A stretch of DNA of 64,000 nt, from positions 1,145 to 65,144 of the forward strand of contig DATIZX010000076.1 of assembly GCA_035516795.1 (NCBI GenBank), in the 5' to 3' direction. The stretch is from Verrucomicrobiia bacterium. GTDB taxonomy: Bacteria > Verrucomicrobiota > Verrucomicrobiia > Palsa-1439. This document shows, one piece after another, positions 7,535 to 63,471 of this stretch. The notes beneath the pieces are model-generated. The model was given only the letters and a program-made list of their open reading frames with translations. It searched no databases and was not told where the DNA came from. Both the position numbers and the translations under genes were made by a program. The stretch's first letter is position 1; the number at the start of each line of letters is the position of its first letter.

Positions 7535-7535
7535 A

Positions 7536-34831: not shown

Positions 34832-34837
34832 GTGTTT

Positions 34838-35494: not shown

Positions 35495-35515
35495 CAGAAC
35501 CGGGAGGACACTATC

Positions 35516-36316: not shown

Positions 36317-36345
36317 AAGCCGGCTCCTTTTTTCTTTCCTTGACT

Positions 36346-38627: not shown

Positions 38628-38654
38628 GTCTTGCTCAGGCCAAGGGACACTCGA

Positions 38655-45144: not shown

Positions 45145-45148
45145 CCGA

Positions 45149-46016
45149 TCAGACCGTATCTGCGAAAATCTTCTCCATGCGACGGAAATAAAAGGCGCCG
45201 ATAACAAAGACGAGAACAGCCGCAAGCCCGGACACCCAAAGGATTGCTCCGGGCGCCGGTGCGCCAAGCAACGCCCAGCGAAATCCTTCGACCACGCCCG
45301 CCATCGGATTGAGGCCGTAGAGCGAACGCCATGGCTCGGGCAACAAGCTGCTCGGATAGGCAATCGGCGTGCAGAAGAGCCAGGCTTGAATTAGAAAACT
45401 GACGGTGTGCCGTACATCACGATACCGCACGTTCATGGCTGACAGCCAAAATCCCACTCCCAGCGATGTAATGAACGCCAATAGGAAAAACGCAGGGAGA
45501 AGAATGAGATGGATTGTCGGCCAAACGTGAAAGTACGCCATCATTCCAATCAACACGATGAACGCCAGCAGGAAATCCACGGCGCCTGAAAGGACGGCGG
45601 AAATCGGCACAATCAGCCGCGGAAAATAAACTTTCTTGATCAGATTGGCATTGCCCACGAGGCTTTCCGCCGCTCCAACAAGGCCGTTGGCGAAAAAATT
45701 CCAAGGGACCAACGCCGCATACGCAAAAATCGGATAGGGGAGACCGTCGGATGGAATTTTTGCCAGCCGTCCAAAAAACAAGCTGAAAACGACCATGGTG
45801 AACACCGGCTGTAGAATGGCCCACGCAGCGCCCAGCGCAGTCTGCTTGTAGCGAACCTTGATGTCGCGCCAGATCAGAAAGTAAAGCAACTCGCGAAATT
45901 CCCAAATCTCCTGCAACCGCAGGGATACCCACCCGCGCGACGGCTCGATTACAAGATCGAAATCGGAATCAGGCGGATTCTGGATGACGCTGTTCAAGAC
46001 TTTCACTTGGGCAGAC
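45149..46016 (-). CDS. wzm: ABC-2 type polysaccharide exporter permease (second copy)
   Basis: A GTG start at 46016 gives MKVLNSVIQNPPDSDFDLVIEPSRGWVSLRLQEIWEFRELLYFLIWRDIKVRYKQT. The ORF track's 480-aa version has an Arg-rich non-coding-like N-terminus. Confidence 0.8.
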
Positions 46017-46101
46017 TTCCGGTTAATCACGCGACAACTTCGACAAGCCTGCAAAGCTTGCGAACCAGAGGTTGATTGCGAATGGAGGCGTTCCTGCTGC
46101 G

Positions 46102-46674
46102 TCAGGAAGCGTCCACCAACTGCGAGCGACTGACGATCAAGCGCGCCTGACAACCGAGCGTAGATAACAGCACGGCCACGCGATCGCGGTCGCTCATTTC
46201 CTGCAAAACGACGGCCTGCAATCCGCGTAATGGTCCGTCGGCAATCTCGACGAGGTCGCCCGGTCGAAAACCGGGGCGGACCGTGACCACGTCGACGGCT
46301 TCGCCGGCCCATTCTTTGAGCTGTTCGATAATCCGCTCGTCGACAATTGTAGGCTTGCCGCCAAAACTGACCACGCCCACGACTTGCGGAGCGTATTGCA
46401 CGGCGCGAAAGCTCTGGGACAGATTCAGACGACAAAAAACGTAGCGCGGGAATAAAGGTCCGATAACCCAACGCTTCACGCGGCGAATCGTCTTGAGGCG
46501 TTTGAGTCGAGGATAATACGTTTCCAGACCGAGGGATTCCCGGCAGTACTGCTCGGCACTGGCTTCCTTGCGCGGTCGCGTATGAACGCACAACCAGCCC
46601 GTTGTGTTGGGAAATGCTCCGTTCTGGGACGGGACCGCCGCCGGAGAGGCTGAAGACATGGCTTCGTTATTCAC
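46102..46674 (-). CDS. NusG/RfaH-family transcription antiterminator paralog (UpxY/LoaP-like)
   Basis: NGN-like N-terminal domain (WLCVHTRPRKEASAEQYCRESLGLETYYPRLK) and a KOW motif (FRPGDLVEIADGPLRGLQAVV). Confidence 0.75.
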   Translation of the reverse strand: MNNEAMSSASPAAVPSQNGAFPNTTGWLCVHTRPRKEASAEQYCRESLGLETYYPRLKRLKTIRRVKRWVIGPLFPRYVFCRLNLSQSFRAVQYAPQVVGVVSFGGKPTIVDERIIEQLKEWAGEAVDVVTVRPGFRPGDLVEIADGPLRGLQAVVLQEMSDRDRVAVLLSTLGCQARLIVSRSQLVDAS

Positions 46675-46820: not shown

Positions 46821-48950
46821 TCAAGCGGCGCCGTTTCGCTTCCCCTTCTTGTGATAATAGGAATAGCGGTACGGATAGTAATAGAATCCGTGCAATTCCT
46901 GATCGATGTTGTTCATGACGACTCCGACCAGCGGAGCGCCACACTCCCGCAGCTTCTGCATGGAGCGGGAAACAATCTCGCGACTCACTTTACCGAATCC
47001 AATGACGTAAACGACCCCTTTCACATGCGGCAACAGCAGGAGCGGATCGCTGACCGCAGTGACCGGCGGGCTGTCGATAATGACGCGATCATATTGCCGA
47101 CAAGCTTCCTGGATGAGTTCTGCCAAACGGTCGGATCCAAGTAGTTCGGGCGCGTTGGGGGGTACGTCACCCACTTGAAGAACGTCCAGGTTCGGAATGT
47201 CGGTCGCCGCAACCACATCCTCCAGCTTCGAATGATTGGTCAAATACAACGAAAGTCCTTTGTCAGCACGGGAACGGAAGACCTTGTGTTGCACGGGATG
47301 ATGCAGATCGCAATCGATCAATAAAGTCCGTTGCCGGTTGGAAGCGAAAGCGATCGCCAGGTTGGCAGACACGACCGATTTGCCTTCGCCGGGAGCTGTG
47401 CTGGTGACGAGCAACGATTTCGCGGCATTCAACTCTGGCTTCAGAGTGATGGTGGCCCGCAAATTTCGAAAGGCCTCGGCGGAAATGGAATGCGGCTGCA
47501 ATTGGAGCACGCGGCCATTCTGGGTACCGTCGGGCAGCTCAATGCGCGGTACACCGGTCAGTAAGGGCAGGCCCAGCAAATCCACGTCCTCGTACGACTT
47601 AATCTTGTCGTCGAACGAATTCATCAGGAAGCTCAAACCCACCGCGGCTCCCAATCCCAAAATAACGCCCATCGCGAAATTACGCGTTTTTCTCGGTTTG
47701 AACGGCGCTCCGGGCACTTGCACCGGATCGACCAGCCGTATGTTGTTAGACTCCAGTTTGCCAGCGACACTGGCTTCCTTCATCCGCGTGAGGATCGCGT
47801 TATACATCTGGCTGTCCGCATCGGCATTGCGCTTCAACGTGTTGTACTCCGCCTGTTTGCTGTCCATTTGCAGCGCCTGCTGCTCCTGATCCTTGAGTGC
47901 GCCCTGCAAACTGTCCTCGTTAGCCTTCGCAAGGGAATATTGCGACTGCAGCGAATTGACGACATCGTTGCAGGCGGCCAAGAGCCGGCCGTTGAGGGCC
48001 TTCAGCTCAGCTTGCAGAGCCACGATTAACGGATGCTGGTCTTTGTAGCGTTCGCGCAAGACGGCCAATTGCACTTGTTTCTCGCTCAATTGTTGACGGA
48101 TGGCAGCCACCTTCGGGTTGCTCAGAATGGCTGGAATCTCCGTGACTTTGCGACCGTCTTCCAATTGCTTCTTCACCACATCCCAGTCAGCTTCAGCCGC
48201 GAGCCGCGTTTTCTCGGCTTGCGTAACGGCGGCGTTGAGTTCTTTGAGCTTGTCAACAACGATGTCCTGCCGCTCTTCCACCGAAACCGCGTGAGAACGC
48301 TGCCGGTACTGGGCCAGAGCCGCTTCCGATTTTTCGAGCTTGGACCTGTATTCGTCTGCTTGCTGCTGTAACCAGCGGACGGCGTCGCTGGCTGCGGCCA
48401 TTCGTCTATCGAGATTCTGTTTGATGTACTGCTGCGCCACGCCAGTGGCCAACAGCGCTGCCAATTGCGGGTCGGCGTTGTCTACATTAATGGCAATCAA
48501 CCGGCTGCCGCGAATCGGCTCAACGCTGAGACAGCCTTGTAGCACACCCGCCAAATCAGTATTGCCTCCGGCGCCGGCGAGAAATGCGGCGTTCTGGTCG
48601 AGCTTCAACGCTTGGACCACCAATTCGCATAACGTCCGGCTCTGGATGAGCTGCATCTGCGTGTTCATGTACTCCTCGTCCCGTGTGTCGGAGGTCAATA
48701 CGTCCTGGATGTTCAGAACCTTCACTGTATCGGAATCCACCTGGACGACAGCAGTGGCTCGATAAGTGGGAGTTTGCCGATAAGTCCAAACGACAGCACC
48801 GATGACCACTGTCAAAAACGCCGCCAGCGCCAGATATTTGTGTTCAACGAGAACAACGAGGTATTGTTGCCACGGAAAACGTCGTTGTTGTGGGCGTCCG
48901 ATCATCGGCCGGGGTGCCGTGGTAGAAATTGCAGGAAGGGTTGTTTGCAT
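46821..48950 (-). CDS. wzc: Polysaccharide co-polymerase / tyrosine autokinase (Wzc/ExoP/GumC-like BY-kinase)
   Basis: Two TM helices flank a large coiled-coil periplasmic domain. The C-terminal kinase has Walker A TAPGEGKSVVSANLA and a Tyr-rich tail YYYPYRYSYYHKK. Confidence 0.85.
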   Translation of the reverse strand: MQTTLPAISTTAPRPMIGRPQQRRFPWQQYLVVLVEHKYLALAAFLTVVIGAVVWTYRQTPTYRATAVVQVDSDTVKVLNIQDVLTSDTRDEEYMNTQMQLIQSRTLCELVVQALKLDQNAAFLAGAGGNTDLAGVLQGCLSVEPIRGSRLIAINVDNADPQLAALLATGVAQQYIKQNLDRRMAAASDAVRWLQQQADEYRSKLEKSEAALAQYRQRSHAVSVEERQDIVVDKLKELNAAVTQAEKTRLAAEADWDVVKKQLEDGRKVTEIPAILSNPKVAAIRQQLSEKQVQLAVLRERYKDQHPLIVALQAELKALNGRLLAACNDVVNSLQSQYSLAKANEDSLQGALKDQEQQALQMDSKQAEYNTLKRNADADSQMYNAILTRMKEASVAGKLESNNIRLVDPVQVPGAPFKPRKTRNFAMGVILGLGAAVGLSFLMNSFDDKIKSYEDVDLLGLPLLTGVPRIELPDGTQNGRVLQLQPHSISAEAFRNLRATITLKPELNAAKSLLVTSTAPGEGKSVVSANLAIAFASNRQRTLLIDCDLHHPVQHKVFRSRADKGLSLYLTNHSKLEDVVAATDIPNLDVLQVGDVPPNAPELLGSDRLAELIQEACRQYDRVIIDSPPVTAVSDPLLLLPHVKGVVYVIGFGKVSREIVSRSMQKLRECGAPLVGVVMNNIDQELHGFYYYPYRYSYYHKKGKRNGAA

Positions 48951-48957
48951 GGCAATC

Positions 48958-49674
48958 CTAAAAGACGGATTCTGGCACGAAGACCACGTCGTCGGGAATC
49001 AGTTCGACATCTTTGCTGCTGTCGCCGCTGCTGATGATAGCGGCGACGTTCACGGTGATCTTCTTCTCGAGGCCGTTTTCGGTCCGAGAGATGCTGACCC
49101 GGCTGGGAGCTGCGATCGGCGTGAAGCCCCCAGCCCGAGCGATGGCCTGCAATAACGTGAGTTTCTCATCCGCGGAGAAGTCGATTGCCCCCGGCGAGCG
49201 TACCTGCCCGAGAATGAAAACTCGGCGGCTGTTCGCCCGATCGACGAGCACGGAAACCTGTGGATGCACCAGATAGTCGCGACCGAGCCGCTGTTTCAAC
49301 AAATGCTCCGCTTCACTGACACTGAGCCCACCGACGAGAACCGCTCCCAGCATCGGGTAGTTGATCATTCCTTGAGTCGAAACGCGGGTCTTGACAGACA
49401 AATCGGGTTCGTTGAAGACATTGATTTGAAGAGTGTCCAACGGCTGGATCCGGTAGTCGGACGGCGAGGACGCAGATGTAGATGCCGCTTGTGCCGACGA
49501 GTGAACGACCGCCGACGATTCACTGGATGACGGGCCCGGCTGTATGACGCGGCTGCTCGAGTATGTTTCTGCGCAGGATACAAAACCGAGACAAAGCGCC
49601 AGGGAGATCATTAATCTCACCAGGGCACTAGCCGGCCCGTACATTTTGACACCCTCTATTCGACCCTTGGCCAT
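48958..49674 (-). CDS. wza: Polysaccharide export outer-membrane/periplasmic protein (Wza/GumB-like; Poly_export + SLBB)
   Basis: Reads PLDTLQINVFNEPDLS...RVFILGQVRSPGAIDF, with an N-terminal signal/lipobox-like LGFVSC. It is the first gene of the operon. Confidence 0.8.
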   Translation of the reverse strand: MAKGRIEGVKMYGPASALVRLMISLALCLGFVSCAETYSSSRVIQPGPSSSESSAVVHSSAQAASTSASSPSDYRIQPLDTLQINVFNEPDLSVKTRVSTQGMINYPMLGAVLVGGLSVSEAEHLLKQRLGRDYLVHPQVSVLVDRANSRRVFILGQVRSPGAIDFSADEKLTLLQAIARAGGFTPIAAPSRVSISRTENGLEKKITVNVAAIISSGDSSKDVELIPDDVVFVPESVF

Positions 49675-50173
49675 GATTCTTCAGTTCGCTTGACTCAAAG
49701 CCCAACCCATTTCGCCTAGTGCTGCCGGGGATTTGATCGTGAACAGAACAGTTCGACTTCGCAAGACGTCTGTTCCGATCCCCAAACTCCGGCATGCCAC
49801 CTTTGCTGGCAAATTATACTGAACAATGTGCCTTTTCACAATAGCGTCAATAGAAAACGTGCCGGGCTCACATGCGCACAAGATCGGTAAGCCTCACGCG
49901 TTCGCAGTGCCCCGAATTATCTCATTATTATCCAGCGGGGCGCGTGCCAAATGGATCGGTGAAGTGCCCTCCTTTTCAACAGTGAATCTCCTTGTGTAAG
50001 TTATTGACTACACGGAGGTTCACGTTACCGCAATCCCAAGATTGCGCGACCATCTTGTCGCCAGTCCGCCGGCATTGTCCATATTGTGGTCACCGATGTT
50101 CGTGCCATGAACGAATTTGCTGGAGGGCGAGCGTTCCACAAAAGCAAAACTCCCGGACGGTTCCGCTCCGAGT
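49675..50173 (-). promoter_or_regulatory. Operon leader / promoter region upstream of wza (lower GC, AT-rich patches, contains the palindrome at 50216-50227 nearby)
   Basis: About 500 bp non-coding stretch with clearly lower GC than the flanks (e.g. tctcattattatccag, aaattatactgaacaatgtgcc). It is the only sizeable gap in 50 kb. Confidence 0.35.
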
Positions 50174-50893
50174 TCATTCTGCTGACTCTGAAATCAGTCG
50201 GAACGTCCGGTCGCGATTTGTGATCACAATTGTGCAGTTAGCGAGCGCGCGAGAATCGCCCTTCGAGAGCATAGATGTATTGTAGCGCGGTGCTGTGTGT
50301 GGGATCAAGTTGTAAGGCTCTGCGGAATGACGCCAAGGCTTGTTCTCTTTTGCCCTGTCCGGCAAACACAACACCGAGTAACGAATGTGCCGGGACGAAA
50401 TCGGGCCGCTCATTTCGTTGTTGCCCATGTAGATCACGGAAAGGTCGCCATCGTGCGCGATGGGCAGAATTATGTTCGAATTAATTGCTGTTATCGCCAC
50501 GCAAATGACTTGAAATCGCGTGTCCGGAAATCGCTCGCTCAAGAGTACTTGCAGGGACCGGCCAACGCCGTAACTCATATCCGGATCGCCGAGGGCCGCG
50601 GATTCGCCGAAAAGAAAAATCCGGTACGAACCCGGGCCTTTCGTGGCGGCGATCCGTTGCGGCATGGGAGTGCGAACCAGTGGCAGCGGAGCAAGCCGAT
50701 AATCGAACGCCAGATTTGGGACGTAAAAGTTCCGGCCGGCGGTTTTCGCGGGAAGGAAGAAGTCGGTGGGATAACCATATCCCGCTACTGGCAGTCCCAA
50801 TTCCATCGCGCCAAGAATCACTAGCGGCACGCCGAACATTGTCAGGAGCCGCAACGCCCCCCGACGACCGGGTGAAAGACTTCGGTGGCTCAC
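50174..50893 (-). CDS. Membrane-anchored SGNH-hydrolase-like protein, possibly truncated/remnant
   Basis: N-terminal TM helix. Has block I RIFLFGESAALGD and block III YMGNNE, but no recognisable DxxH block. The C-terminal 70 aa read like non-coding translation. Confidence 0.3.
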   Translation of the reverse strand: MSHRSLSPGRRGALRLLTMFGVPLVILGAMELGLPVAGYGYPTDFFLPAKTAGRNFYVPNLAFDYRLAPLPLVRTPMPQRIAATKGPGSYRIFLFGESAALGDPDMSYGVGRSLQVLLSERFPDTRFQVICVAITAINSNIILPIAHDGDLSVIYMGNNEMSGPISSRHIRYSVLCLPDRAKENKPWRHSAEPYNLIPHTAPRYNTSMLSKGDSRALANCTIVITNRDRTFRLISESAE

Positions 50894-51282
50894 GCTACGA
50901 GGTGCGGGCGACTGTGATGGCCCGCGTTATACGTGGCAACACCGGAGTCAGGGAATTCGGGCAAGTCCGTTATCTGGGCCTTAACGTGCATCGCACCAAT
51001 TTGTGGAATGGAAGGAATCATCAGATTTCATACTTCATGAGCGTTACTGGTTCCAGCCACATCGCGAGTCCGCCCGGCTCAAGCGCCGCCTTTCAAGGGT
51101 AACGCGTATTCTTTCCCCCTTTCGCCAAAACTGAAGTTGAAATGCTTAACTTCACTACGCAGCAAATAATCCAAGGGCTTTGATCGATTAAAAGGATAAG
51201 TTAAATTTGTGCCTCCCCGTATAGTGAGCTATTGTCGCTGCGGTCGTTTCTGTTCAACTGGTATGGTGCATCGGGAGCCTGA

Positions 51283-53439
51283 ATGCGTTGGCGGAACCTT
51301 TCAACTTTGTCGGGTGGATTGCTCATTTGTCTTGTGGCGGCGGGTCAGATTGCGCATCCCACGAACCTTGCAGCAGTGGATCTTCCCTATAACAGCACCT
51401 GTCCCATCGTTTATGACAACGACTCGCATGATGACATGTACACCGACGAATATCTGCTGGCTCTGGCCAGCGCTGGTGAAATCACACTGAAAGGCATGAT
51501 CACCACCTCGGGTGGCTGGCGGGAGCCGCTATTCCCCGATCCGGTTTTTGTATTTCAATGGCCCTTGGCAGGTCGGAGCGAAATCGTCGGCAAGGCCTGG
51601 CGCAGTGGCTTCACCAATCTTCCAACGCCAGTGGCCGGTTCCGGCAGCGCACTGCTCAAACCCTCCTCGGGGCTTATCGAAGATACTTTGCCCGACGACA
51701 CTCCCGGCGCCCGCCTGATCGTCAATGAAGCGAAGAACGCGAGCCCCAGTCAGCCGCTCGTAGTCGTGATGGGCGGTCCGCCAACCACTTTGGCCAGTGC
51801 CTATCTGCTCGATCCGTCAATTGCCGACAACGTGGTGTTGGCTTGGCTTGGCGGAGGTCCGGGCGAAAACGATATGCAAAACTACAACGATCTCGTGGAC
51901 CGTTGGGCCACATACATTGTCGTTCATCGACTGCGCGTTGTGCTCTTCGGACCGGTGTTTAATCAGGCCCCATTGGTGCCGAAATCGCAGTTGACGGAGT
52001 TGCCGAACACCGAGTTGCGTCCTTGGATGATCGACAAGGAATTGCCCAACGCGAATCTGCCGAACGGATTCGATCACGATGCACCACCAGCCATCAGTCT
52101 GCTACGCCCGGATTATGTCTTTGCCGCAAAGCCCAAATCCTTCAGCAGCGTCGATGCGAGCGGCGTCATTACCCTTCAAGACGACCCGACCGGTAATATC
52201 CTGATGGTCACCCAAGCCGACCAGAACATTGGAACCGAGGAGTGGTGGCGCGCGTTGGAAAACCCGGCGGCGTACGGCTACGACCCGTTGCCTCCCACGC
52301 TCACGCCGTTTGCTGGAACGCCGGCAGTAATACCGGGGGGCATCGAAGCAGAAGATTTTGATTACGGTGGCCCTGAAGTTGCCTACCACGATCTCAATGT
52401 AAAGACGATGGACCAAAATGCGAAGCGAAACATCACAACCTTTCGTGTAACCGACAACGTGGACTTCGATTACTGTTCGGATTTCAATGGCGGTTACGCG
52501 ATTGCCCGGGCTCAGAAGGGGGAATGGCTCAACTACAGCGTCAACGTCACGACAGCCGGTTTGTACACGCTTCACGCTCGCGTCTCCTCATCCGGCAATG
52601 GCGGGATATTTCACGTCGCCTTCGATAGCGTCGATAAAACCGGGCCAATCAAGATTCCCAACACTCACTATTTGCAGAACTGGCGGACCATATCCACGGC
52701 ACCTGTGGCTTTGGATTCAGGGCAACATGTCATGAGTATCATCATCGATGCCAACGGCGCTCACGGCGTGGCCGGTGACATCAACTACTTGGATTTCGAG
52801 TTGGGAGATTCTGTGGCTTCCAACCAGTCTGCTGTGCTTGGAACCTGGGACATTTCCATGAGGGGATCGAAGGACGGCGTGGGCTTGGTCACATTCAACG
52901 AGGACTCCACGTTGACCGGCTACGGAATCCGCACGGATTGTTCCGGCGTCTTCCAACTCTCCGGATCGTGGCAGAAGGGCCGGAGGGGAATTCTGGTCAC
53001 TGCTATTCGGGATTCCGACTGTGGATCCGTTCAGACACAACTGAGACTCACGGTGCAAAGCAACGGGCGTCTTCTTGCCGCGGCGGACGGCAGTAGCAGG
53101 TCTCGCTGGCAAGGTGACAGGGCACCGACCGAACCCATTCTAGATGGATACTGGTTTGGCACAATTCGAATGCCAGGCACGCACACCACTTCGTCTCAAG
53201 TATACAGGCTGATTCCCGAGGGAGATCTGCCTGGCGTATTCGACATCAGCGATGGGAACACGGATGCGCCTCTGGGCGAAGGCATCGTAACTTCGGCGCA
53301 TTTGGTTGAAGCCTATTTGACCATCAACGGGAATCCCGCTGCTTTTATTGGCCGATTCAACTCTGTAAAACGAATCTTGAAGCTGAAAACAGCAAACAGG
53401 GCGGCAAGAAGAATCATCATCAAGGCCAGCCAGCAGTAA
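51283..53439 (+). CDS. Secreted nucleoside-hydrolase (IUNH)-like domain protein with C-terminal CBM6-like carbohydrate-binding module
   Basis: Signal peptide, then IVYDNDSHDDMYTDEYLLALASAGEITLKGMITTSGG (compare IUNH DxDxxxDD...LALA...ITTxxGN), VVVMGGPPTTLA and LAWLGGG blocks. The CBM6-like region includes EAEDFDYGG...GEWLNYSVNVTTAGLYTLHARVSS. Confidence 0.6.
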   Translation: MRWRNLSTLSGGLLICLVAAGQIAHPTNLAAVDLPYNSTCPIVYDNDSHDDMYTDEYLLALASAGEITLKGMITTSGGWREPLFPDPVFVFQWPLAGRSEIVGKAWRSGFTNLPTPVAGSGSALLKPSSGLIEDTLPDDTPGARLIVNEAKNASPSQPLVVVMGGPPTTLASAYLLDPSIADNVVLAWLGGGPGENDMQNYNDLVDRWATYIVVHRLRVVLFGPVFNQAPLVPKSQLTELPNTELRPWMIDKELPNANLPNGFDHDAPPAISLLRPDYVFAAKPKSFSSVDASGVITLQDDPTGNILMVTQADQNIGTEEWWRALENPAAYGYDPLPPTLTPFAGTPAVIPGGIEAEDFDYGGPEVAYHDLNVKTMDQNAKRNITTFRVTDNVDFDYCSDFNGGYAIARAQKGEWLNYSVNVTTAGLYTLHARVSSSGNGGIFHVAFDSVDKTGPIKIPNTHYLQNWRTISTAPVALDSGQHVMSIIIDANGAHGVAGDINYLDFELGDSVASNQSAVLGTWDISMRGSKDGVGLVTFNEDSTLTGYGIRTDCSGVFQLSGSWQKGRRGILVTAIRDSDCGSVQTQLRLTVQSNGRLLAAADGSSRSRWQGDRAPTEPILDGYWFGTIRMPGTHTTSSQVYRLIPEGDLPGVFDISDGNTDAPLGEGIVTSAHLVEAYLTINGNPAAFIGRFNSVKRILKLKTANRAARRIIIKASQQ
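51380..52420 (+). repeat. Paralogous DNA repeat (copy 1) shared with 53560..54600
   Basis: About 80% nucleotide identity in aligned stretches (e.g. cgtttatgacaacgactcgcatgatgacatgtacaccgacgaatatctgctggc versus ggtctatgataacgactcccacgatgatatgtacacggacgagtatctgctcgc). Confidence 0.5.
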
Positions 53440-53459
53440 GTCAAATCACCTCATCTCCC

Positions 53460-55328
53460 ATGTGCTCGCGATTCAGAAATAAGTATTCAAAAGCCACGCT
53501 GCTCGTCGCGATCGTGCTGCCGCTTGCCCTGCAGGAACTCCTTGCCATTTCACTTCCATACGATCACACCTGCCCCGTGGTCTATGATAACGACTCCCAC
53601 GATGATATGTACACGGACGAGTATCTGCTCGCATTGGCCAGCGCCGGTTCGATCGCTCTCAAGGGCATGATTACCAGTTCCTGTGGCTGGAGCGAGCCGC
53701 TGTTTCCCGATCCCGTTTTCGTGTTTGAATGGCCGTTGGCGGGTCGGAGCGAAATCGTGGGCAAAGCCCTACGCAGTGGGATGACGAACGCGCCCACCCC
53801 GGTCGCCGGCTCCGGTGTCGCCTTGGTTAAACCTGTTTCCGGAGTTATCGAAGACACCGCACCAGTGGACACGCCGGGCGCTCATCTGATTGTGGATCAA
53901 GCGAACAACGCCTCCGCCAGTCAGCCGCTGGTTGTCATCATGGGCGCGCCTCCCACGACCGTGGCCAGTGCCTATCTGCTCGATAACTCGATTACCGATC
54001 GTGTCGTCCTCGCTTGGCTAGGTGGTGGTCCTGGTGAAAATCAGATGCAGAATTACAACGATGTGGTTGACCCATGGGCGACGCAGATCGTTGTCCGGCG
54101 CTTTCGCACCTATCTCTTCGGTCCAGTGTTCGACCAATCCCCGGTCGTAACCAAATCTGATCTGGCTGCTCTGTTGCCCCATACCGAACTGCGCCAATGG
54201 ATGATCGACAAGAACTTGCCAAACGCCAACCTGCCCAATGGACGCGATCACGATGCGCCACCAGCAATTACTTTGATGCGGCCGGATTACATCGTTGGGG
54301 CGGAGACGAAGTCCTTCGATTACGCCGATGCGAACGGGAACGTTTTCCTAAAAGATGACGCGAACGGAAATGTCATGATGGTTACGAATGTGAATGAATC
54401 CATCGGCACTTCCGAATGGTGGCGCGCTCTCACAAATCTCGCCGCTTACGGCGGCAGTCCTCTGCCACCCGTGCTAACTCCGTACGGGGGTGTTCCGGCC
54501 CAAATTCCCGGCACCATTCAGGCCGAGAATTACGATTATGGTGGCCCCGAGGTCGCCTACCACGATCTCGATGTCAAAGTCATGGACGATAACGCGACTC
54601 GCTCGATCACGACATTTCGAGTTACCGATTGGGTTGATTTCGATCCGGCCAGTGGCGATGCCGGCGGCTATGCTCTCGCCGTCGCACAGCCCACCGAATG
54701 GGAGGATTATACTGTCAACGTCCTGCAGTCCGGGTTATACACAATCGACGCTCGCGTTGCCTCCAAAGGGGCCGGGGGTTCGTTCCATATCGAATTTGAC
54801 GGATCGAACGTTACCGGCTCCATGTTCGTCCCGGACACGGGCGATTGGCAAAACTGGCAGACAATTACCGCCAGCAATATCAGTCTTACTGCCGGGCAGC
54901 AAACGATGCGCATTGTGATGGATACCGGTGGAGTTTCGAATCTGGTGGGCGACATCAATTACGTGCGCATCTGGACCGCCGGTGAAAACGGGCCCGACGA
55001 CGATCCCGATGGCGATGGCTTCAGCAATTCACAGGAAGACATGCTGGGAACCGATCCGCTCGACGCCGACAGCCATATCGCGTTGGAAATTTCGCCGCAG
55101 AACGATGACTCCATAAAGTTGGACTACCAATCAGTCGTCCGTCGACTCTACACCATCGAGTACAAAGACGGTTTTGCGGAGACGAATTGGACATCGATTA
55201 CGAACTGCGAAGATATCGCCGGCACGGGTTCGATCACCAGTTATATCGACGATGGCAGCGGCACCGGCTCTGCGCCCACGGCAACGACGAATCGCTTCTA
55301 CCGTCTGCGAGTGACTTTGCCTCCCTAG
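53460..55328 (+). CDS. Secreted IUNH-like + CBM6-like protein, tandem paralog, with Asp-rich Ca-binding (thrombospondin-type-3-like) segment and C-terminal beta-domain
   Basis: About 75% identical to the upstream paralog over the N-terminal domain. Has VVYDNDSHDD..., the CBM6-like block (TEWEDYTVNVLQSGLYTIDARVAS) and DDDPDGDGFSNSQEDMLGTDPLDADS. Confidence 0.6.
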   Translation: MCSRFRNKYSKATLLVAIVLPLALQELLAISLPYDHTCPVVYDNDSHDDMYTDEYLLALASAGSIALKGMITSSCGWSEPLFPDPVFVFEWPLAGRSEIVGKALRSGMTNAPTPVAGSGVALVKPVSGVIEDTAPVDTPGAHLIVDQANNASASQPLVVIMGAPPTTVASAYLLDNSITDRVVLAWLGGGPGENQMQNYNDVVDPWATQIVVRRFRTYLFGPVFDQSPVVTKSDLAALLPHTELRQWMIDKNLPNANLPNGRDHDAPPAITLMRPDYIVGAETKSFDYADANGNVFLKDDANGNVMMVTNVNESIGTSEWWRALTNLAAYGGSPLPPVLTPYGGVPAQIPGTIQAENYDYGGPEVAYHDLDVKVMDDNATRSITTFRVTDWVDFDPASGDAGGYALAVAQPTEWEDYTVNVLQSGLYTIDARVASKGAGGSFHIEFDGSNVTGSMFVPDTGDWQNWQTITASNISLTAGQQTMRIVMDTGGVSNLVGDINYVRIWTAGENGPDDDPDGDGFSNSQEDMLGTDPLDADSHIALEISPQNDDSIKLDYQSVVRRLYTIEYKDGFAETNWTSITNCEDIAGTGSITSYIDDGSGTGSAPTATTNRFYRLRVTLPP

Positions 55329-55347
55329 AGAAGCTTGGACGTCACGA

Positions 55348-56421
55348 TCAAGCTCTACGGTGCCGAAGCCGGTCCAAGGCCACCGCGACGATGATGATGA
55401 TGCCGATGACCATTTCTTGCACCCACTTGGGCCAGCCCATTTGTTGTCCGCCCGTGTACAGCATCGTAATGGTCAGCGCCCCGATGATCGTGCCGAGAAT
55501 GGAACCTTCCCCGCCAGTAAAACTCGCGCCACCGATAATCACTGCTGCAATCACGAACAGCTCATACATTACCGCCGTGGTTGGTTGCCCGATACCGCCG
55601 ATGTAGGAGAATTGCATTAACCCGGCCACGCCACAGAAAAATCCGCTGGCTGTGTACACGAATAATTTCGTCCGCCCCACCGACACACCGCACAATCGAG
55701 CAGTTTCTTCGTTGGAACCGACGGCGAAGATATGCCGGCCCAAACGTGTATATCGCAGTAGCAACGCCGCAATAACGACCCCAACGATCAGAATCCACAC
55801 CCCGGTCGGCAAAAGAATGCCGCTATGCCCATGCGTCGATAACGTTGGGTCCATGATTCTATTGATCCAGGTGTCTTGCGGCGGGTAAATGTCGCGTTCG
55901 CGAGCAATGCCTTTGGCCAGCCCGCGAAACATTCCCATCGTGCCGAGAGTCACGATAAACGGCACGAGCCGCAGCCCAACGATGATGCCTCCATTCGCCA
56001 AACCAGCCACCGTAGTGATGACGACGCCAGCCAAAACCGCGAGAATGGGCGCGAGCACCGGATGCAGGGCCACCACGCTCTGCACCGAACCGTCCGCACC
56101 GGCCACGTTCAAATTAAGAACCCACGCCACCGTGACCACCGACAGCGCAATCAGCGAACCGGCGGAGAGATCAATGCCCCCGGCGACAATCACCATCGTC
56201 ATGCCCAGGCCAGCCGTGGCATACACGCAACTCTGGCGCAGGATGTTTTCGAGGTTGCGCAGGGTATAGAATTTCCCGCCCTCGACGAGTACGGCAAAAA
56301 AGATAAACACGGCAAGAAGCGCAATGAACCGCCCAAAAACATTGCCCAAAACAAGTTTGGGTCGCCTGCGGTGCTCCTCCGTGGCGTTCGGCACCAGGGG
56401 AGTTTCAATGGGATCGCTCAT
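55348..56421 (-). CDS. Monosaccharide ABC transporter permease (RbsC-like)
   Basis: About 10 TM helices and the BPD_transp_2 family pattern. Confidence 0.8.
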   Translation of the reverse strand: MSDPIETPLVPNATEEHRRRPKLVLGNVFGRFIALLAVFIFFAVLVEGGKFYTLRNLENILRQSCVYATAGLGMTMVIVAGGIDLSAGSLIALSVVTVAWVLNLNVAGADGSVQSVVALHPVLAPILAVLAGVVITTVAGLANGGIIVGLRLVPFIVTLGTMGMFRGLAKGIARERDIYPPQDTWINRIMDPTLSTHGHSGILLPTGVWILIVGVVIAALLLRYTRLGRHIFAVGSNEETARLCGVSVGRTKLFVYTASGFFCGVAGLMQFSYIGGIGQPTTAVMYELFVIAAVIIGGASFTGGEGSILGTIIGALTITMLYTGGQQMGWPKWVQEMVIGIIIIVAVALDRLRHRRA

Positions 56422-57944
56422 GTTTCTTCCTGTCCGATGGCGGCCGTCATCAGCTTTTGTTCATTCCAATCGTCGCGCTCACGAGCTTCGCCGAGCCGAC
56501 CGCGGCACATGACGGCAATGCGGTCGCACACGCCGAGCAGTTCGGGAATGTAGCTGCTTACCATTAGCACCGCTTTCCCTCGGGCTGCCAGTTCGTCAAT
56601 CAGCCGGTAAATCTGCGCCTTTGATCCCACGTCGATTCCACGGGTCGGTTCGTCCAGCAACAGGACGTCAACGTCGGCATGCAGCAAACGCGCGATGGCT
56701 ACTTTCTGTTGATTGCCGCCAGACAGATCGCCAAGTCGTTGGGACGCATTCAGACATTTGATAGGAATTTGCGCGATCCACGGCTCACAGGCCGCCCGCT
56801 GTCGCGAAGGCAACACGAATCGCCAAGGTCCCAGCCCCTGCAGTCGCGGCAGAGTCACATTCTCAGCAATGCTCAAACCGTACGCCAAACCTTCCATCCT
56901 CCGATCCTCGCTCACCATACCCACGCGCTCTGTCCAGCGTTGCGAAGGCGTCTGCGCACCTTGAAAAACGCCGACGCGAATTTCGCCGCGTTGGACACGA
57001 TCCAGTCCGAAAATCGTGCGCATCAACTCCGTCCGTCCGGCGCCAATCAAACCGGAAATGCCCAACACTTCACCGCGCCGCAATCGCAAGGATGCTGCAC
57101 GAGGTTTCGCGAAGCCGCTCAGTTCCTTGATCTCGAGAACGACGTCGCCCGGCGTCCGCGACGAACGCGGGTATAACTCGTTTACCTCACGACCCACCAT
57201 CAGCGCAATGATTCGATCCAGGGATGTGCCTACCGTTTTCCCCGTGCCGACAGTCTCACCGTCGCGTAACACCGTAAACCGGTCGGCGATTTGCTGCGCT
57301 TCCTCCAAAAAGTGAGAAATGTACACGACGGAAATGCCGCGCGACTTCAAGCGGCGGATGAGCGCGAACAATCTCTCGATGTCTTTTGCCGTCAAAGAAC
57401 TCGTTGGTTCATCCAGCACCAACACCCGACAGTCGAGAGCGACCGCACGCGCGATCTCGACGAGTTGCTGCTGCGCGACAGACAACTGGCGCACCTGAAT
57501 CTCGGGCACAATTTGGTCCAGCCCGACCGTGCTCAACGCCGCCGTCGCTCGCTGTCGCATGGCCTTCCATCGCACCAGTGGACCGTGCGTCGGCTCGACG
57601 CCCAACAGGATGTTTTCCATCACGGACAAGTGCGGCGCCAGCGCCAGTTCCTGATAAATCATCGCCACGCCGCTGTGCCGCGCCCGCCACGGATTTCCCG
57701 GTGCGAAGGGCTTTCCATCGAGAAACATTCGGCCGTCGTCTGGTCGGAGGGCACCCGCAAGGATCTTCATCAACGTGCTTTTGCCGGCACCGTTCTCCCC
57801 AACCAGCGCCATCACTTCGCCGGGCATCACGACAAGATCGACTCCCCGCAATGCCTCGGTGGCGCCGAAACGCTTGCGCACCCCGCGCATTTCGAGGCGC
57901 GCCGAATCAGGCTTGGCAGATTCGTCGGCGGAGGGGACCATCAA
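56418..57944 (-). CDS. Monosaccharide ABC transporter ATP-binding protein (RbsA-like, tandem ABC domains)
   Basis: Two Walker A / signature sets (GENGAGKST ... LSGGNQQKV). Confidence 0.85.
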   Translation of the reverse strand: MMVPSADESAKPDSARLEMRGVRKRFGATEALRGVDLVVMPGEVMALVGENGAGKSTLMKILAGALRPDDGRMFLDGKPFAPGNPWRARHSGVAMIYQELALAPHLSVMENILLGVEPTHGPLVRWKAMRQRATAALSTVGLDQIVPEIQVRQLSVAQQQLVEIARAVALDCRVLVLDEPTSSLTAKDIERLFALIRRLKSRGISVVYISHFLEEAQQIADRFTVLRDGETVGTGKTVGTSLDRIIALMVGREVNELYPRSSRTPGDVVLEIKELSGFAKPRAASLRLRRGEVLGISGLIGAGRTELMRTIFGLDRVQRGEIRVGVFQGAQTPSQRWTERVGMVSEDRRMEGLAYGLSIAENVTLPRLQGLGPWRFVLPSRQRAACEPWIAQIPIKCLNASQRLGDLSGGNQQKVAIARLLHADVDVLLLDEPTRGIDVGSKAQIYRLIDELAARGKAVLMVSSYIPELLGVCDRIAVMCRGRLGEARERDDWNEQKLMTAAIGQEET

Positions 57945-57947
57945 CGG

Positions 57948-58925
57948 TTACTCGAGGCCGCACAATTTGCGGACTTCGGGATCGGTCGCCAACTTCTCTT
58001 TGGTGACGAGCTCCGTACCGGTGTCGATCACAGCCGGCACCTTCTCCTTACGGATAACCTTTACGAGGGTTTGCACCACCAGGTATCCCATCTTGGCTGG
58101 ATTCTGCGCCACCAGAGCATCGATGGTTCCATTCTGGACATCCTCGACCAACCGCTTGGAAGTGTCGAATCCAACAAACTTGGCGTCCACTTTGACGCCG
58201 CTCTTTTGCAGGTCTTCCAGTGCGGAGGCAAGTCCGATCGTGGAATAAAGATTGCAGGCGAACAAACCATCCAAGTTGAGCCGGCCATCCTTCACGAATT
58301 TCTCCAGCGTGTTGGCCGCGGCAGTTTTGCACCCTTCGATGGTTCCCGTGTCGGGATAGGGATCGGCGACAACGTCATAACCCGCGGCTTTGGCAGCCTC
58401 GATAAACCCGGCGGCACGCGCTTCGGTGCTTCCCGTGCCCTGGACAAACCGCATGCACATGACCCGCGCCGCCTTCTTGTGGCCAATCAATCGGGCCAAT
58501 TCCTGCGCGCCAAGCACGCCACCATGTTTGTTGTCCGTCGCCACAAAGCTGCTCTGCGCGGTGCCATCGACAGCGGAGTCGAACACGACAACCGGGATGC
58601 CCGCGGCCACCGCATCCTCGACTTCCCGGCGTGTGGCAATCTTGTTCAACGGTGCCAGCGCTATGCCTTGCACTCCCATGTTGACCATGTTCTCGATGAT
58701 CTTGTTCTGCTCAGCGATTTCAGTTTCGGTGACTGTACCCTCCCACTTCATCGTCACGCCCAATTCTTGCGCCGCATTCTCAGCACCTTTGTGCACCGTT
58801 TCCCAGAACTCGCCGCCCGTACTCTTCGGAATAACGGCAATGGTCAGCTTGTCTTGCGCGAAAGAACTGCCGAGCCAGCCACCGGTAATCAGGATTGCCA
58901 GGAGTGCGATAACAGTCTTCTTCAT
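57948..58925 (-). CDS. Monosaccharide-binding periplasmic protein (RbsB-like, Peripla_BP_4)
   Basis: Reads MKKTVIALLAILITGGWLGSSFAQDKLTIAVIPKSTGGEFWE, a signal peptide followed by a type I PBP fold. Confidence 0.8.
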   Translation of the reverse strand: MKKTVIALLAILITGGWLGSSFAQDKLTIAVIPKSTGGEFWETVHKGAENAAQELGVTMKWEGTVTETEIAEQNKIIENMVNMGVQGIALAPLNKIATRREVEDAVAAGIPVVVFDSAVDGTAQSSFVATDNKHGGVLGAQELARLIGHKKAARVMCMRFVQGTGSTEARAAGFIEAAKAAGYDVVADPYPDTGTIEGCKTAAANTLEKFVKDGRLNLDGLFACNLYSTIGLASALEDLQKSGVKVDAKFVGFDTSKRLVEDVQNGTIDALVAQNPAKMGYLVVQTLVKVIRKEKVPAVIDTGTELVTKEKLATDPEVRKLCGLE

Positions 58926-59073
58926 GGTGCTCTCCGTGATCGTTTTCAGCCAGACTAAGACTTTTCCAGACGTTGGCAAGCTTTGCGTGACACGAATTGC
59001 CTTCCCAGGCCCCGGTGACGATCGCGACCTTACCAACGAGTTTCTTTGAGTCTGCACTCGTTGCGTTGCTTCA

Positions 59074-60510: not shown

Positions 60511-63471
60511 ATGCTAGCGTACGAGTTGTCTCGATTTATGGATTCGTTTGGGTCACTAGGGCATCTAGGCCAATGCAGGTTGGCGCTCTTGCTATGCATC
60601 GGAATTCTCTTCAATGTTGCCGAGCGAGTGCTGGGGGTCCAAATCCTGCACGGTCATGTGCCGGCGGCAGTGGCGCATTTGCAGCCAATCAGGCGCCTGT
60701 CAGCCACCACGAATTTGGATCTGGCGATCGGGTTGCCGCTGCGCAACAAAGAAGGACTTAGCGAGTTGCTCGAACAGATTTATACCCCGTCCAGTCCCCA
60801 TTACCGTCACTACCTGACTCCGGAACAGTTTACCGAAAGGTTTGGTCCGACAGAGCAGGATTACCAGGCTCTCATTGATTTCGTGAAGACGAACGGCTTG
60901 ATTGTCACCGGCACGCATCCCAATCGGGTCCTGCTGGACGTGAGAGGCTCGGTGGCCAACCTTGAAAAGGTTCTCCATGTGAAGATGCGCGTTTACCAAC
61001 ACCCGACGGAGGCCCGCACGTTCTATGCGCCCGATATCGAGCCGTCGCTTGACCTGGCGATACCGGTGCTGAGTATCAGCGGTCTGAATAACTACAATGT
61101 GCCGCATCCGAAGCGTCTCATTCGGAGACCCAGCACTAGGATGCCGAACGCCACGCCGAACACCGGCTCGGGGCCAAGCGGTGCTTATATGGGGTACGAT
61201 TTCAGAGACGCGTACGTCCCGGGCGTCACTCTCACCGGTGCCGGGCAAGTAGTCGGACTGGTGGAGTTTGATGGCTACTACTCCAGTGACATTACGGCAT
61301 ACGAGAATCAGACCGGGTTGCCGGGAGTCCCCTTGGCGAATGTGCTGCTGGATGGGTTCAAAGGGACCCCGACCACCGGCGCCAACAGCGGAAACACCGA
61401 GGTGGCTCTGGACATTGAGATGGCGATTTCCATGGCGCCGGGCTTGTCCAAGGTGATCGTCTATGAAGCCGGTCCGAATGGCATTGCGAACGACATTCTG
61501 AGCCGGATGGTCTCGGACAATCAGGCCAAACAAATCAGTTGTTCTTGGGCTTTTGGCGTGGCTGGTCCCGATCCGACAGCCGATCAACTCTTTCAAGAAA
61601 TGGCGGCACAGGGACAGTCTTTCTTCGACGCTTCGGGGGACAGCGATGCCTTTGTCGGTTCGACAGCCGGAGAATTTCCTTCGGATGATCCGTACATTAC
61701 GCAGGTCGGTGGAACCACGTTGACAACCACCGGTCCAGGCGGCTCCTATGTTTCGGAAACCGTCTGGAATTGGGGTTTTGTCCGCCACAGCGGTTATGTT
61801 GGCAGCAGCGGCGGAATCAGCACCGTTTATTCCATTCCCAGTTGGCAACAAGGCATCAGCACGTCCGCCAACCAGGGATCGGCTACCATGCGGAACATTC
61901 CGGATGTTGCGATGGTCGGAGATAATGTTTCGATCATCGCCAACAATGGCCAACAAGCAACGTACGGCGGCACCAGTTTGGCGGCTCCCTTATGGGCAGG
62001 CTTCACTGCGTTGGTCAATCAGGACGCCTTGGCGAATGGCCAGCCAGTGGTGGGGTTTGTCAACCCATCCCTTTACGTGGTCGGCAAGGGGGCGGACTAC
62101 CTGTCCGATTTCCATGATATCACCACCGGCAATAACGAATGGCCTTCCAGTCCGACCCAGTTCTCCGCGGTGGCCGGTTACGATCTCTGTACCGGCTGGG
62201 GCACCCCGACCGGCGGCAACCTGATCGATGCTCTCGCCGGCGTTACGAATCCTCCACCCACCGGCGCGCTGCAGGTGAGCATCAGCCCCGCAGCCGCCGT
62301 CAACGCCGGGGCGCAATGGCAGGTTGATGGCGGCGCCTGGCAGAACAGCGGTGCAATGGTTGCCGGGCTGGCCCTTGGTGGCCACACGGTTCACTTCAAT
62401 GCGATCGCCGGCTGGACGTCCCCAGCGGACCAGAACGTAACCATCGACTCCGGCACAACCACGATGACGGTGGGGACCTACACAGTCACGGACACCACTC
62501 CACCCGCGCTCGTTGTAGTGAGCCCAACGGATTACCAGATCTTCACCAACGCCAGCGTGAATGTGGCGGGCACAGCCAGCGATGCCAGCGGGATCGAGAG
62601 CGTGACCGTGAATGGCATCGGCGCATCCCTTGTCGGCACCAACTGGTCGCAGACCGTCAACCTGTCCCTGGGTACCAACAGCATCATGGTGATTGCCACG
62701 GACAACAGTCCGAACCTGAATGCGGTCACGCAAATGGTGCACGCAGTTTATTCGACAGTGCTGATCACCTCGAATCCCACCGTCACCAATGCACTGCTTC
62801 AGGTCGGCGATGTGGTGGCGGTCGTCGCCGGCGAGACCAACGCTTTTACGGTAAACGCGGTTGATTCGGAAGTAGGCACCCTGAGCTATCAATGGTTGTT
62901 CGGGGACGGGACCAGCAATGATTGGTCGTCTTCGAGCACGACACTCCATGCTTATCCCACCAACTGCGGCCCGTATTTGGCGAGCGTGGCTGTTTCGGAC
63001 GGACAGACGACAATGACGAGCAACTTGAACGTGGCTGTCGCTTGCCAGTTGGCCATCACCAGACTCAGGATGAGATTGGACTTTGCCAAACCGAATGCGG
63101 ACAGAGTCAGACTCAGGGGCATTCTTGACCTCGGCACGAACTACGATGTAACGGCCAAGCTGGTTACGCTGGACGTCGGCGGTGCACAGATGGGGTTCAT
63201 TCTCAATGCCAAGGGGCGTAGCGCGAATCCCTTGGGAACCTGCCGGCTGGTCTACCACAAGAGGACGCAACTGTGGACGTTGCACGCGAGACTCAAGAAA
63301 GGCTCATGGCAAACAGCGTGGGCGGCATTTGGTTTGACAAAAGCCCACGTCCGCGAACCGGGCATTCAGGTCACGCTGCCGGTCATTGTTGTCATCGACA
63401 ACGAGGCTTTCGCCGATGAGCGCACCATGACCTATACAGCCACTTTGAACAAGTACGGTTGGGCAAAGTGA
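60511..63471 (+). CDS. S53-family (sedolisin/kumamolisin-like) serine peptidase with pro-domain, Ig-like and PKD domains
   Basis: Pro-kumamolisin-like activation domain (HYRHYLTPEQFTERFGPTEQDYQAL), a catalytic GGTSLAAPLWAG block, and a C-terminal PKD motif WLFGDGTSNDWSSSSTTLHAYP...YLASVAVSDG. Confidence 0.8.
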   Translation: MLAYELSRFMDSFGSLGHLGQCRLALLLCIGILFNVAERVLGVQILHGHVPAAVAHLQPIRRLSATTNLDLAIGLPLRNKEGLSELLEQIYTPSSPHYRHYLTPEQFTERFGPTEQDYQALIDFVKTNGLIVTGTHPNRVLLDVRGSVANLEKVLHVKMRVYQHPTEARTFYAPDIEPSLDLAIPVLSISGLNNYNVPHPKRLIRRPSTRMPNATPNTGSGPSGAYMGYDFRDAYVPGVTLTGAGQVVGLVEFDGYYSSDITAYENQTGLPGVPLANVLLDGFKGTPTTGANSGNTEVALDIEMAISMAPGLSKVIVYEAGPNGIANDILSRMVSDNQAKQISCSWAFGVAGPDPTADQLFQEMAAQGQSFFDASGDSDAFVGSTAGEFPSDDPYITQVGGTTLTTTGPGGSYVSETVWNWGFVRHSGYVGSSGGISTVYSIPSWQQGISTSANQGSATMRNIPDVAMVGDNVSIIANNGQQATYGGTSLAAPLWAGFTALVNQDALANGQPVVGFVNPSLYVVGKGADYLSDFHDITTGNNEWPSSPTQFSAVAGYDLCTGWGTPTGGNLIDALAGVTNPPPTGALQVSISPAAAVNAGAQWQVDGGAWQNSGAMVAGLALGGHTVHFNAIAGWTSPADQNVTIDSGTTTMTVGTYTVTDTTPPALVVVSPTDYQIFTNASVNVAGTASDASGIESVTVNGIGASLVGTNWSQTVNLSLGTNSIMVIATDNSPNLNAVTQMVHAVYSTVLITSNPTVTNALLQVGDVVAVVAGETNAFTVNAVDSEVGTLSYQWLFGDGTSNDWSSSSTTLHAYPTNCGPYLASVAVSDGQTTMTSNLNVAVACQLAITRLRMRLDFAKPNADRVRLRGILDLGTNYDVTAKLVTLDVGGAQMGFILNAKGRSANPLGTCRLVYHKRTQLWTLHARLKKGSWQTAWAAFGLTKAHVREPGIQVTLPVIVVIDNEAFADERTMTYTATLNKYGWAK

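Follow-up and report, generated by a model that had tools for sequence, protein, structure and literature searches.

Why a bacterium should export two proteins built on the scaffold of a nucleoside hydrolase (NH), each with a carbohydrate-binding module (CBM), is the question raised by a pair of tandem genes, P1 and P2. They lie at positions 51283 to 55328 of a 64,000-nucleotide stretch of DNA (the window) from a Verrucomicrobiia bacterium (assembly GCA_035516795.1, contig DATIZX010000076.1). What is new here is that the pair belongs to a mostly exported family of about 590 clusters, which recurs in surface-glycan operons homologous to a 48-kb cluster in the window and also in clusters of carbohydrate-active enzymes (CAZymes). 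Taken together, the fold, the export signals, the CBM architecture, the conserved residues of a candidate metal site and the recurrence in glycan loci point to an extracytoplasmic, glycan-directed function; the target is probably a sugar polymer rather than free nucleosides. A preliminary description of the window had read both products as secreted NH-fold proteins and had proposed an extracellular ribofuranosyl-cleaving activity; both open reading frames (ORFs) were found where it had placed them. The pair comprises the following features:

51283 to 53439, plus strand: P1 gene, 718 amino acids; signal peptide, NH-fold domain, CBM6 and C-terminal double beta-barrel region
51283 to 51372, plus strand: P1 signal-peptide-like N-terminus, about residues 1-30, called by a heuristic (basic residues and hydropathy)
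51379 to 52287, plus strand: P1 NH-fold domain, about residues 33-335, with candidate Ca2+/cis-diol site D47, D51, N202 and D266
52339 to 52797, plus strand: P1 CBM6 module, about residues 353-505, from PF03422 and PDB CBM6 matches
52825 to 53397, plus strand: P1 C-terminal region, about residues 515-705, with two predicted eight-stranded up-and-down beta-barrels
53460 to 55328, plus strand: P2 gene, 622 amino acids; signal peptide, NH-fold domain, CBM6, TSP3 repeat and C-terminal domain of about 85 amino acids
53550 to 54461, plus strand: P2 NH-fold domain, about residues 31-334, with DNDSHDD at residues 43-49
54510 to 54968, plus strand: P2 CBM6 module, about residues 351-503, from PF03422
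55002 to 55325, plus strand: P2 tail, a bacterial TSP3 repeat (residues 515-536, PF18884) and then the domain of about 85 amino acids

P1 and P2 are 65% identical across 503 amino acids (74% in the N-domains) and diverge completely beyond that point. The genes are separated by just 20 nucleotides, so they are probably co-transcribed. A Shine-Dalgarno-like GGGAG is found 7 nucleotides 5' of the P1 ATG; across 50800-55600, a simple search for promoters and terminators gave a site count no higher than that of shuffled sequence. P1 corresponds to database cluster P0001 except for one residue (A410T), and P2 is identical to P0007. The NCBI name of P2 is merely 'carbohydrate-binding protein [Verrucomicrobiae bacterium]'; current annotation misses the NH domain.

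The signal peptides that had been claimed find support in a heuristic which looks for basic residues and then takes the mean Kyte-Doolittle hydropathy over a 10-residue stretch; by this measure both N-termini are Sec-like. The P1 leader has two Arg followed by hydrophobic LSGGLLICLVAAG (mean 2.5), while that of P2 has four basic residues and a following stretch with a mean of 3.0. The conserved part of P1 begins at LPYN, residue 34. DNDSHDD, the motif on which the first identification was built, is present in both proteins (P1 residues 45-51). P1 also holds the blocks LALASAGEITLKGMITTSGG, GGPPTTLA and LGGG that had been listed with it; P2 has close variants, LALASAGSIALKGMITSSCG and GAPPTTVA.

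Is the N-domain a nucleoside hydrolase? The IU_nuc_hydro model (PF01156) scores 28.7 bits on P1 and 27.8 on P2, below its gathering score of 34.2; the P1 N-domain alone reaches 31.5 bits, which is still too low, and the match covers the central third of the model only. The NH assignment therefore rests on fold and profile comparisons and not on Pfam. A single-sequence phmmer search of the N-domain against the PDB gave no significant match, so a family profile was needed. A profile built from 39 homologues finds the IUNH nucleosidases 3t8j (E = 1.8e-6) and 3t8i (2.2e-5), with the match limited to the central GGPxT...LD segment. Fold matches are exclusively to NH-fold proteins, and the P1 and P2 N-domains have the nucleoside-hydrolase alpha/beta fold, as first proposed. 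Neither protein has a Pfam match to a glycoside hydrolase (GH) family that would supply a different catalytic domain; with NH-fold matches only, the N-domain is not assigned to any unrelated known GH family. We know of no CAZy GH family with an NH fold. P1 and P2 are distant homologues of the IUNH nucleoside hydrolases; strict membership failed on the Pfam threshold and on the literal fingerprint DXDXXXDD.

Are the residues of an active site retained? RihA, RihB and RihC of E. coli K-12 were used as comparison sequences. The hhalign alignment of the family with these proteins runs nearly end to end (9-302 against 1-309); with a template of three sequences only it is statistically weak (E about 1e-3), and it is consistent with the predicted strand-loop-helix topology. 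The Asp cluster survives this careful alignment. D45/D47/H49/D50/D51 fall on RihA D8/D10/H13/D14/D15 with a one-residue gap; the segment STCPIVYDNDS-HDDMYTD stands opposite MALPILLDCDPGHDDAIAI with one residue deleted. YNDLVDRWAT lies opposite FNIYVDPEAA and FNIAADPEAA, and FDHDAPPAISLLRPDYV lies opposite the His-Asp segment, which is RMHDLCAIAWLVRPDLF in RihC. D266 aligns with the C-terminal Ca2+ ligand (Asp242 in CfIU-NH) and N202 with the ribose-binding Asn (of the pair Asn168/Glu166). The conserved IUNH His82 'VHGxxG' aglycone loop has no aligned counterpart, in a region where hhalign confidence is low.

Conservation was counted across 90 representatives of the family at 26-52% identity. 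N46 is kept in 88 of these, D47 in 86, D/E51 in 86 and N202 in 84; the counts are 85/90 for D206, 89/90 for W208, 75/90 for D264 and 87/90 for D266. At position 200, 54 of the representatives have D, E or N. Within the N-terminal motif only N46, D47 and D/E51 are kept family-wide. Residues aligned with the Ca2+ ligands and the catalytic base are conserved in the representatives and are therefore under selection. The candidate site of P1 additionally includes D50 and H265, in the P1/P2 subclade; judged by alignment, the leaving-group machinery is not common to the whole family.

What the rest of each protein contributes is clearer for the CBM6 module than for the C-termini. CBM6 had been proposed, and PF03422 matches with 52.7 bits (P1) and 62.4 bits (P2) against a cut-off of 28.9. 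In the PDB the module matches the CBM6 of CtXyl5A (2y8k, E about 3.6e-17) and AaBglC (8zvk, E = 3.3e-22), and further 5fui (E = 2.7e-8) and 1uxz (E = 4.1e-7). We take these solved relatives to bind xylan, beta-glucans, laminarin or agarose; the glycan specificity of a CBM6 is not readable from sequence. The proteins were, however, wrongly said to end in CBM6: the module is internal (about residues 353-505), and further sequence lies C-terminal to it. This consists of about 210 amino acids of all-beta structure in P1, and of about 117 residues including TSP3 in P2. The TSP3 repeat, a Ca2+-binding type, scores 26.2-29.6 bits with PF18884 (cut-off 25). The remainder of the P2 tail (about 85 amino acids, ending NRFYRLRVTLPP) has no family match, and the tail may be a surface-attachment module. 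The TSP3 stretch also weakly matches the Amuc_1099 pilus-like family model. For the P1-specific region (52825-53397) Pfam gives no match; five full-length orthologues conserve it, and two of its cysteines are invariant. The barrels of this region resemble avidin, TbpB-handle or small outer-membrane-protein barrels in a model of modest confidence (pLDDT 68.6). A functional inference from this fold was dropped, as these are generic eight-stranded barrels only.

How far does the family extend? A phmmer search of the N-domain against 1.84 billion representatives returned 593 clusters (defined at 50% identity) at E <= 1e-3, 325 at <= 1e-10 and 112 at <= 1e-30. PF01156 is matched at E <= 1e-3 by 63 of the 90 representatives, with a best value of 1e-14. 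Fusion partners in the same set are in the great majority glycan-binding: CBM6/CBM35 (17), Laminin_G_3 (6), F5/8-C (4) and PA14 (3), and also ricin-B, CBM4_9 and GLEYA; two representatives carry an apiosidase-like (GH140-type) catalytic domain. A hydrophobic leader is found in 47 of the 54 relatives that have an N-terminal domain and room for a leader. Lipoboxes are present in the relatives at loci L015, L018 and L022, and an AQA-type signal peptide in that at L020. The family is thus a large, mostly exported branch of the NH superfamily which has repeatedly been fused to glycan-binding modules. A genome scan found relatives across the Verrucomicrobiota (including Opitutales, Limisphaerales, Kiritimatiellae and Lentisphaeria) and the Planctomycetota (among them Singulisphaera sp. 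PoT with its complete genome, NZ_CP186274, locus L022), and also in Spirochaetales, Myxococcota, Acidobacteriota, Gemmatimonadota, Omnitrophota and Dadabacteria. A FecR (anti-sigma sensor) domain occurs in five representatives and sigma-70 region 4 in one; these fusions hint that some NH-fold domains may be extracytoplasmic ligand sensors.

Tandem pairs also occur outside the window. In another Verrucomicrobiia metagenome-assembled genome (MAG; L003/L004), a pair of 728 and 611 amino acids is divergent from Wza/Wzc. Over the NH and CBM6 parts, paralogues within a genome are 74% identical in L003 and 65% in the window; across genomes P1 is 57% identical to its L003 counterpart and P2 is 65% identical to its own. 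The distinct C-terminal tails of the L003 pair (5707-9836) are orthologous to those of window 51283-55328. Paralogues within a genome are thus closer than P1 is to its counterpart, while the tails are orthologous. In a neighbour-joining tree, P0004 (727 amino acids) pairs with P0014 (605 amino acids); their longest contigs have the same length (11,314 bp), so the two probably lie on one contig. These patterns suggest that tandem copies have undergone gene conversion or have exchanged their tails.

A further pointer to function is gene context. In the window, P1 and P2 stand divergently beside a large cluster:

1017 to 49674, minus strand: surface-polysaccharide biosynthesis and export cluster, about 48 kb, divergent from P1/P2, identified by Pfam

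Pfam was scanned for ORFs from 11610 upward. For export, the cluster encodes Wza, Wzc, two Wzm/Wzt pairs with Wzt_C, and a Wzy-like protein. Its enzymes include many GT2/GT4 glycosyltransferases, PIG-L and polysaccharide deacetylases, methyltransferases and NTP-transferases. A module at 33018-39428 consists of an NTP-transferase, a 4,6-dehydratase-like epimerase, a sugar C-methyltransferase (Methyltransf_13/14) and a DUF4910/DUF2172/HTH_47 protein.

Elsewhere (L012, L015, L007 and L003), family members have homologues of several of the cluster genes as neighbours. In L015, from a different Verrucomicrobiota MAG, a single-domain lipoprotein relative lies within a co-directional operon in the order GT2, methyltransferase, MBOAT, unknown, NH, NTP-transferase, dehydratase, C-methyltransferase, DUF4910; from the NTP-transferase onward the genes are 49-66% identical to window genes. 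In L012, from Longimicrobiales and so from another phylum, two tandem relatives (5842-7928) lie between Wzm/Wzt/GT2 and an NTP-transferase/dehydratase flank that is 50-67% identical to window genes, followed by a sulfotransferase. Both L012 relatives are without a CBM, and one scores 42.3 bits, above the PF01156 gathering score. The L007 relative adjoins a PglD/Bac_transf/Polysacc_synt_2/DegT cluster whose NTP-transferase is 66% identical to that of the window. Distant CBM6-bearing relatives are found in degradative clusters: in L005 with three apiosidase-like proteins, NPCBM, GH123_N, GH10 and GHL15, and in L006 with a sugar ABC transporter, GH109-like, GH94 and GH130. At many genome loci none of the neighbouring genes is homologous to those of the window, and the link between the family and glycan clusters is recurrent, not universal. 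A cytoplasmic nucleotide-sugar role for the operon relatives was considered and rejected because they carry lipoboxes or signal peptides.

One module travels with NH-family genes: it is common to window 33018-39428, L015 7045-12001 and L012 7925-9824, at 49-67% identity. This suggests that a branched-chain (C-methyl) sugar pathway may have spread horizontally together with the NH gene.

Several other features of the neighbourhood were recorded. Wzm/Wzt exporters are encoded at 25741-27857 and 43864-46591, both with Wzt_C cap-recognition domains, and the regions 12803-14386 and 46821-49674 encode the Wzy-like polymerase and Wzc/Wza. As two Wzm/Wzt exporters are mixed with Wzy-like and Wzc/Wza proteins, the cluster appears to hold the genes of more than one polysaccharide pathway next to each other. 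Two paralogous ORFs of 326 amino acids, at 24753-25733 and 29481-30461, are matched by nothing in Pfam, NCBIfam or the PDB; a homologue that is 48-52% identical lies directly downstream of an NH-family gene in a Dadabacteria MAG (L018 7410-8375). The 1.6-kb gap between Wza and P1 (49675-51282) has a sole ORF of 239 amino acids (50174-50893, minus strand), which has no family match. It carries the GDSL/SGNH-like motifs FGESAALG and YMGNNE, and may be a decayed or truncated gene. In L003 a BBP2_2 outer-membrane barrel gene lies between Wza and the tandem pair; tblastn of window 49000-51600 found no BBP2_2 remnant. Beyond the pair, 60511-63471 (plus strand) encodes a protein of 986 amino acids with a pro-kumamolisin activation domain, glucodextranase domain B and PKD domains; for a sedolisin-type peptidase this architecture is unusual.

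What, then, might P1 and P2 do? Our preferred reading, a tentative one that stands close to an even call, is that they would act as Ca2+-dependent, glycan-directed hydrolases. The mechanism is drawn by analogy with nucleoside hydrolases, as that family is summarised in PMC8910321. CBM6 would keep the protein on a polysaccharide, most likely the product of the adjacent 48-kb cluster or a similar bacterial glycan. Ca2+ would be held by D47, D51 and D266 and would grip a terminal (ribo)furanosyl-like sugar by its vicinal cis-diol, just as in nucleoside hydrolases it grips ribose O2'/O3'. D47 would activate the Ca2+-bound water for cleavage of the glycosidic bond, and H265, in the subclade of P1 and P2, could donate a proton to the leaving group. 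Biologically, the two proteins would trim or remodel a glycan of the surface or the matrix outside the cytoplasm. The lectin, CBM and apiosidase-like fusions of the relatives, and their CAZyme or surface-glycan loci, add support to the glycan-directed role that had first been proposed.

The sugar itself is another matter. The ribofuranosyl specificity of the preliminary description is a conjecture; no ribofuranose-synthesis gene was found in the neighbouring cluster. Ribofuranose is present in ABC-transporter-dependent O-polysaccharides, where it is introduced via PRPP-dependent gPRT/PRP transferases (PMC11231755). For a furanose route, Pfam finds neither Glf nor a PRPP-type enzyme in the 48-kb cluster, which counts against a furanosyl target. 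A phmmer search of four unannotated cluster ORFs against the PDB, including ribofuranosyltransferases, also gave no match, although this single-sequence test is weak.

Further points weigh against our preferred reading. The DXDXXXDD fingerprint is literally absent: DNDSHDD of P1 and P2 corresponds to DxDxxDD, one residue short. D50, opposite the ribose-binding Asp14, and H265, opposite the IU-NH acid His241, are conserved in the P1/P2 subclade only, and it is by alignment that D47, D51 and D266 are placed together at a putative metal site. A close relative, P0023, has no glycan context of any kind, and window-homologous biosynthesis genes are linked to the family in only about five independent organisms (from 34 genome and 5 metagenome loci). 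To our knowledge, no protein of NH fold has been shown to cleave an unactivated O-glycoside. XopQ, an NH-like effector, lacks nucleosidase activity. The structurally closest CBM-bearing precedent likewise does: Sde_0182 of Saccharophagus degradans (PDB 2YHG; PF07632, 'Sde182_NH-like'; Hehemann, Marsters and Boraston 2011, as cited in PMC8910321) shows no activity on nucleosides and is regarded as a binding module (PMC8910321).

A bolder claim, which we consider doubtful, is that P1, P2 and the family of about 590 clusters found a new Ca2+-dependent, NH-fold family of glycoside hydrolases, which would trim a terminal cis-diol sugar from ABC-transporter-exported polysaccharides. That sugar would be ribofuranosyl-like or branched-chain, and this equally doubtful part of the proposal would have post-export editing encoded within the biosynthesis clusters themselves.

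The case of Sde_0182 leads to the alternative that survives best, although we judge it unlikely and slightly more so than the founding of a new GH family: the NH-fold domain is non-catalytic, its Ca2+ site just binds a furanose or cis-diol sugar, and P1 and P2 are matrix-organising or adhesin-like. Each protein would then have two glycan-binding domains, one NH-like and one CBM6. The same has been proposed for Sde_0182, which keeps Ca2+ and yet is inactive on nucleosides.

An improbable alternative is an extracellular nucleoside hydrolase for salvage, for example from nucleic acid degraded in the matrix. CBM6 would merely hold the enzyme in the extracellular polymeric substances (EPS), and the ribose would be imported by an adjacent transporter:

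55348 to 59057, minus strand: CUT2-type monosaccharide ABC importer (permease, ATPase and binding protein), convergent with P1/P2, identified by Pfam

This ribose/allose-type importer ends 19 nucleotides downstream of the pair. L003 and the P0028 contig each have a PNP_UDP_1 gene downstream, and periplasmic RusNH and extracellular plant nucleoside hydrolases are precedents. P1 and P2 specifically keep residues that align with all four motif Asp and with the His-Asp pair of IU-NH; the PF01156 matches of the family, with one L012 paralogue above the gathering score, point the same way. However, no NCBIfam equivalog is above cut-off for the importer (allose, ribose and rhamnose types are far below threshold), and it lies on the opposite strand and was not found beside relatives at any other locus examined; as it has no specific equivalog and is not conserved near relatives, it was dropped as evidence of a ribose link. 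The lack of an aligned counterpart to the aglycone loop, in that low-confidence region, also speaks against salvage, which explains poorly the lectin and CBM fusions of the family and its location in glycan biosynthesis operons. Finally, hydrolysis or binding of another small riboside (ADP-ribose, NAD-derived ribosides, nicotinamide riboside or cytokinin ribosides), with a role in inter-organism interaction as proposed for XopQ/HopQ1, is very improbable, as the context holds no pointer to host interaction or NAD metabolism, and CBM6 and the glycan-cluster linkage favour a polymer.

If the P1/P2 family is catalytic on glycans, as we tentatively prefer, the NH fold and its Ca2+-activated water mechanism would join the glycoside hydrolases. 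This would mean an unrecognised extracytoplasmic step in surface-polysaccharide assembly in at least ten bacterial lineages named in MAG records, among others Verrucomicrobiota, Planctomycetota, Gemmatimonadota, Acidobacteriota and Myxococcota. If the domain is a lectin or an ordinary nucleosidase, the finding reduces to a divergent, CBM-tagged member of a known superfamily.

How do P1 and P2 compare with known systems? The literature search found no paper on the P1/P2 family, on an NH-fold glycoside hydrolase or on a 'ribofuranosidase' of NH fold; for nucleoside hydrolases linked to EPS, O-antigen or CAZymes, the only precedents found were Sde_0182 and RusNH. PslG, BcsZ, PelA and AlgL are glycoside hydrolases or lyases of exopolysaccharide operons. 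The likeness to them is a functional analogy: the gene of an exported polymer-processing enzyme stands among those for biosynthesis and export, an arrangement which the relatives in L015 and L012 show and, in divergent orientation, the window. Their folds and catalytic machinery are unrelated to those of P1 and P2, and the analogy is drawn from gene context alone. The type III effectors XopQ/HopQ1, which are delivered into plant cells, also have an altered Asp motif and bind ADP-ribose, but they have neither a CBM nor a glycan-cluster context.

Canonical IUNHs (PF01156; E. coli RihA/B/C and Crithidia IU-NH; 6ba1, 3t8i and 3t8j) have the motif DxDxxxDD, whereas P1 and P2 have DxDxxDD and an insertion of about 20 residues after strand 2. 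The canonical enzymes are cytoplasmic and are encoded in nucleoside-salvage operons; the P1/P2 family is mostly exported, often fused to CBM6 or other modules, and repeatedly located in glycan clusters.

The statement that no secreted IUNH-CBM fusion had been characterised was too strong, as CBM-bearing, NH-like Sde_0182 has a solved structure (PDB 2YHG). Sde_0182 and P1/P2 are alike in combining an NH-like fold with carbohydrate-binding modules in an exported protein. The domain order is opposite: the CBMs come first in Sde_0182, whereas in P1 and P2 the NH domain is N-terminal and CBM6 follows. By sequence the two show no detectable relationship: PF07632 has no match on the N-domain at E <= 10 and, by frequency, ranks outside the top 25 of the 38 Pfam families that the 90 relatives match; 2YHG was not retrieved by the family profile at E <= 1. 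The P1/P2 family is structurally nearer to active nucleoside hydrolases.

Export of a nucleoside hydrolase is also less novel than had been thought, as periplasmic RusNH (BT2808) is known from a glycan-uptake locus, the ribose-utilisation system of Bacteroides thetaiotaomicron (bioRxiv 10.1101/574913). RusNH cleaves p-nitrophenyl-beta-D-ribofuranoside, an O-riboside, is weak on nucleosides, and has a natural substrate which is possibly polymeric (10.1101/574913). Like P1 and P2 it is an exported nucleoside hydrolase, and its locus is of the glycan-uptake type; unlike them it has the canonical DXDXXXDD, no CBM, and a context of SusC/D and ribokinase. If it is catalytic on glycans, the P1/P2 family could help to explain the natural substrates of both of these exported NH-like proteins, Sde_0182 and RusNH.

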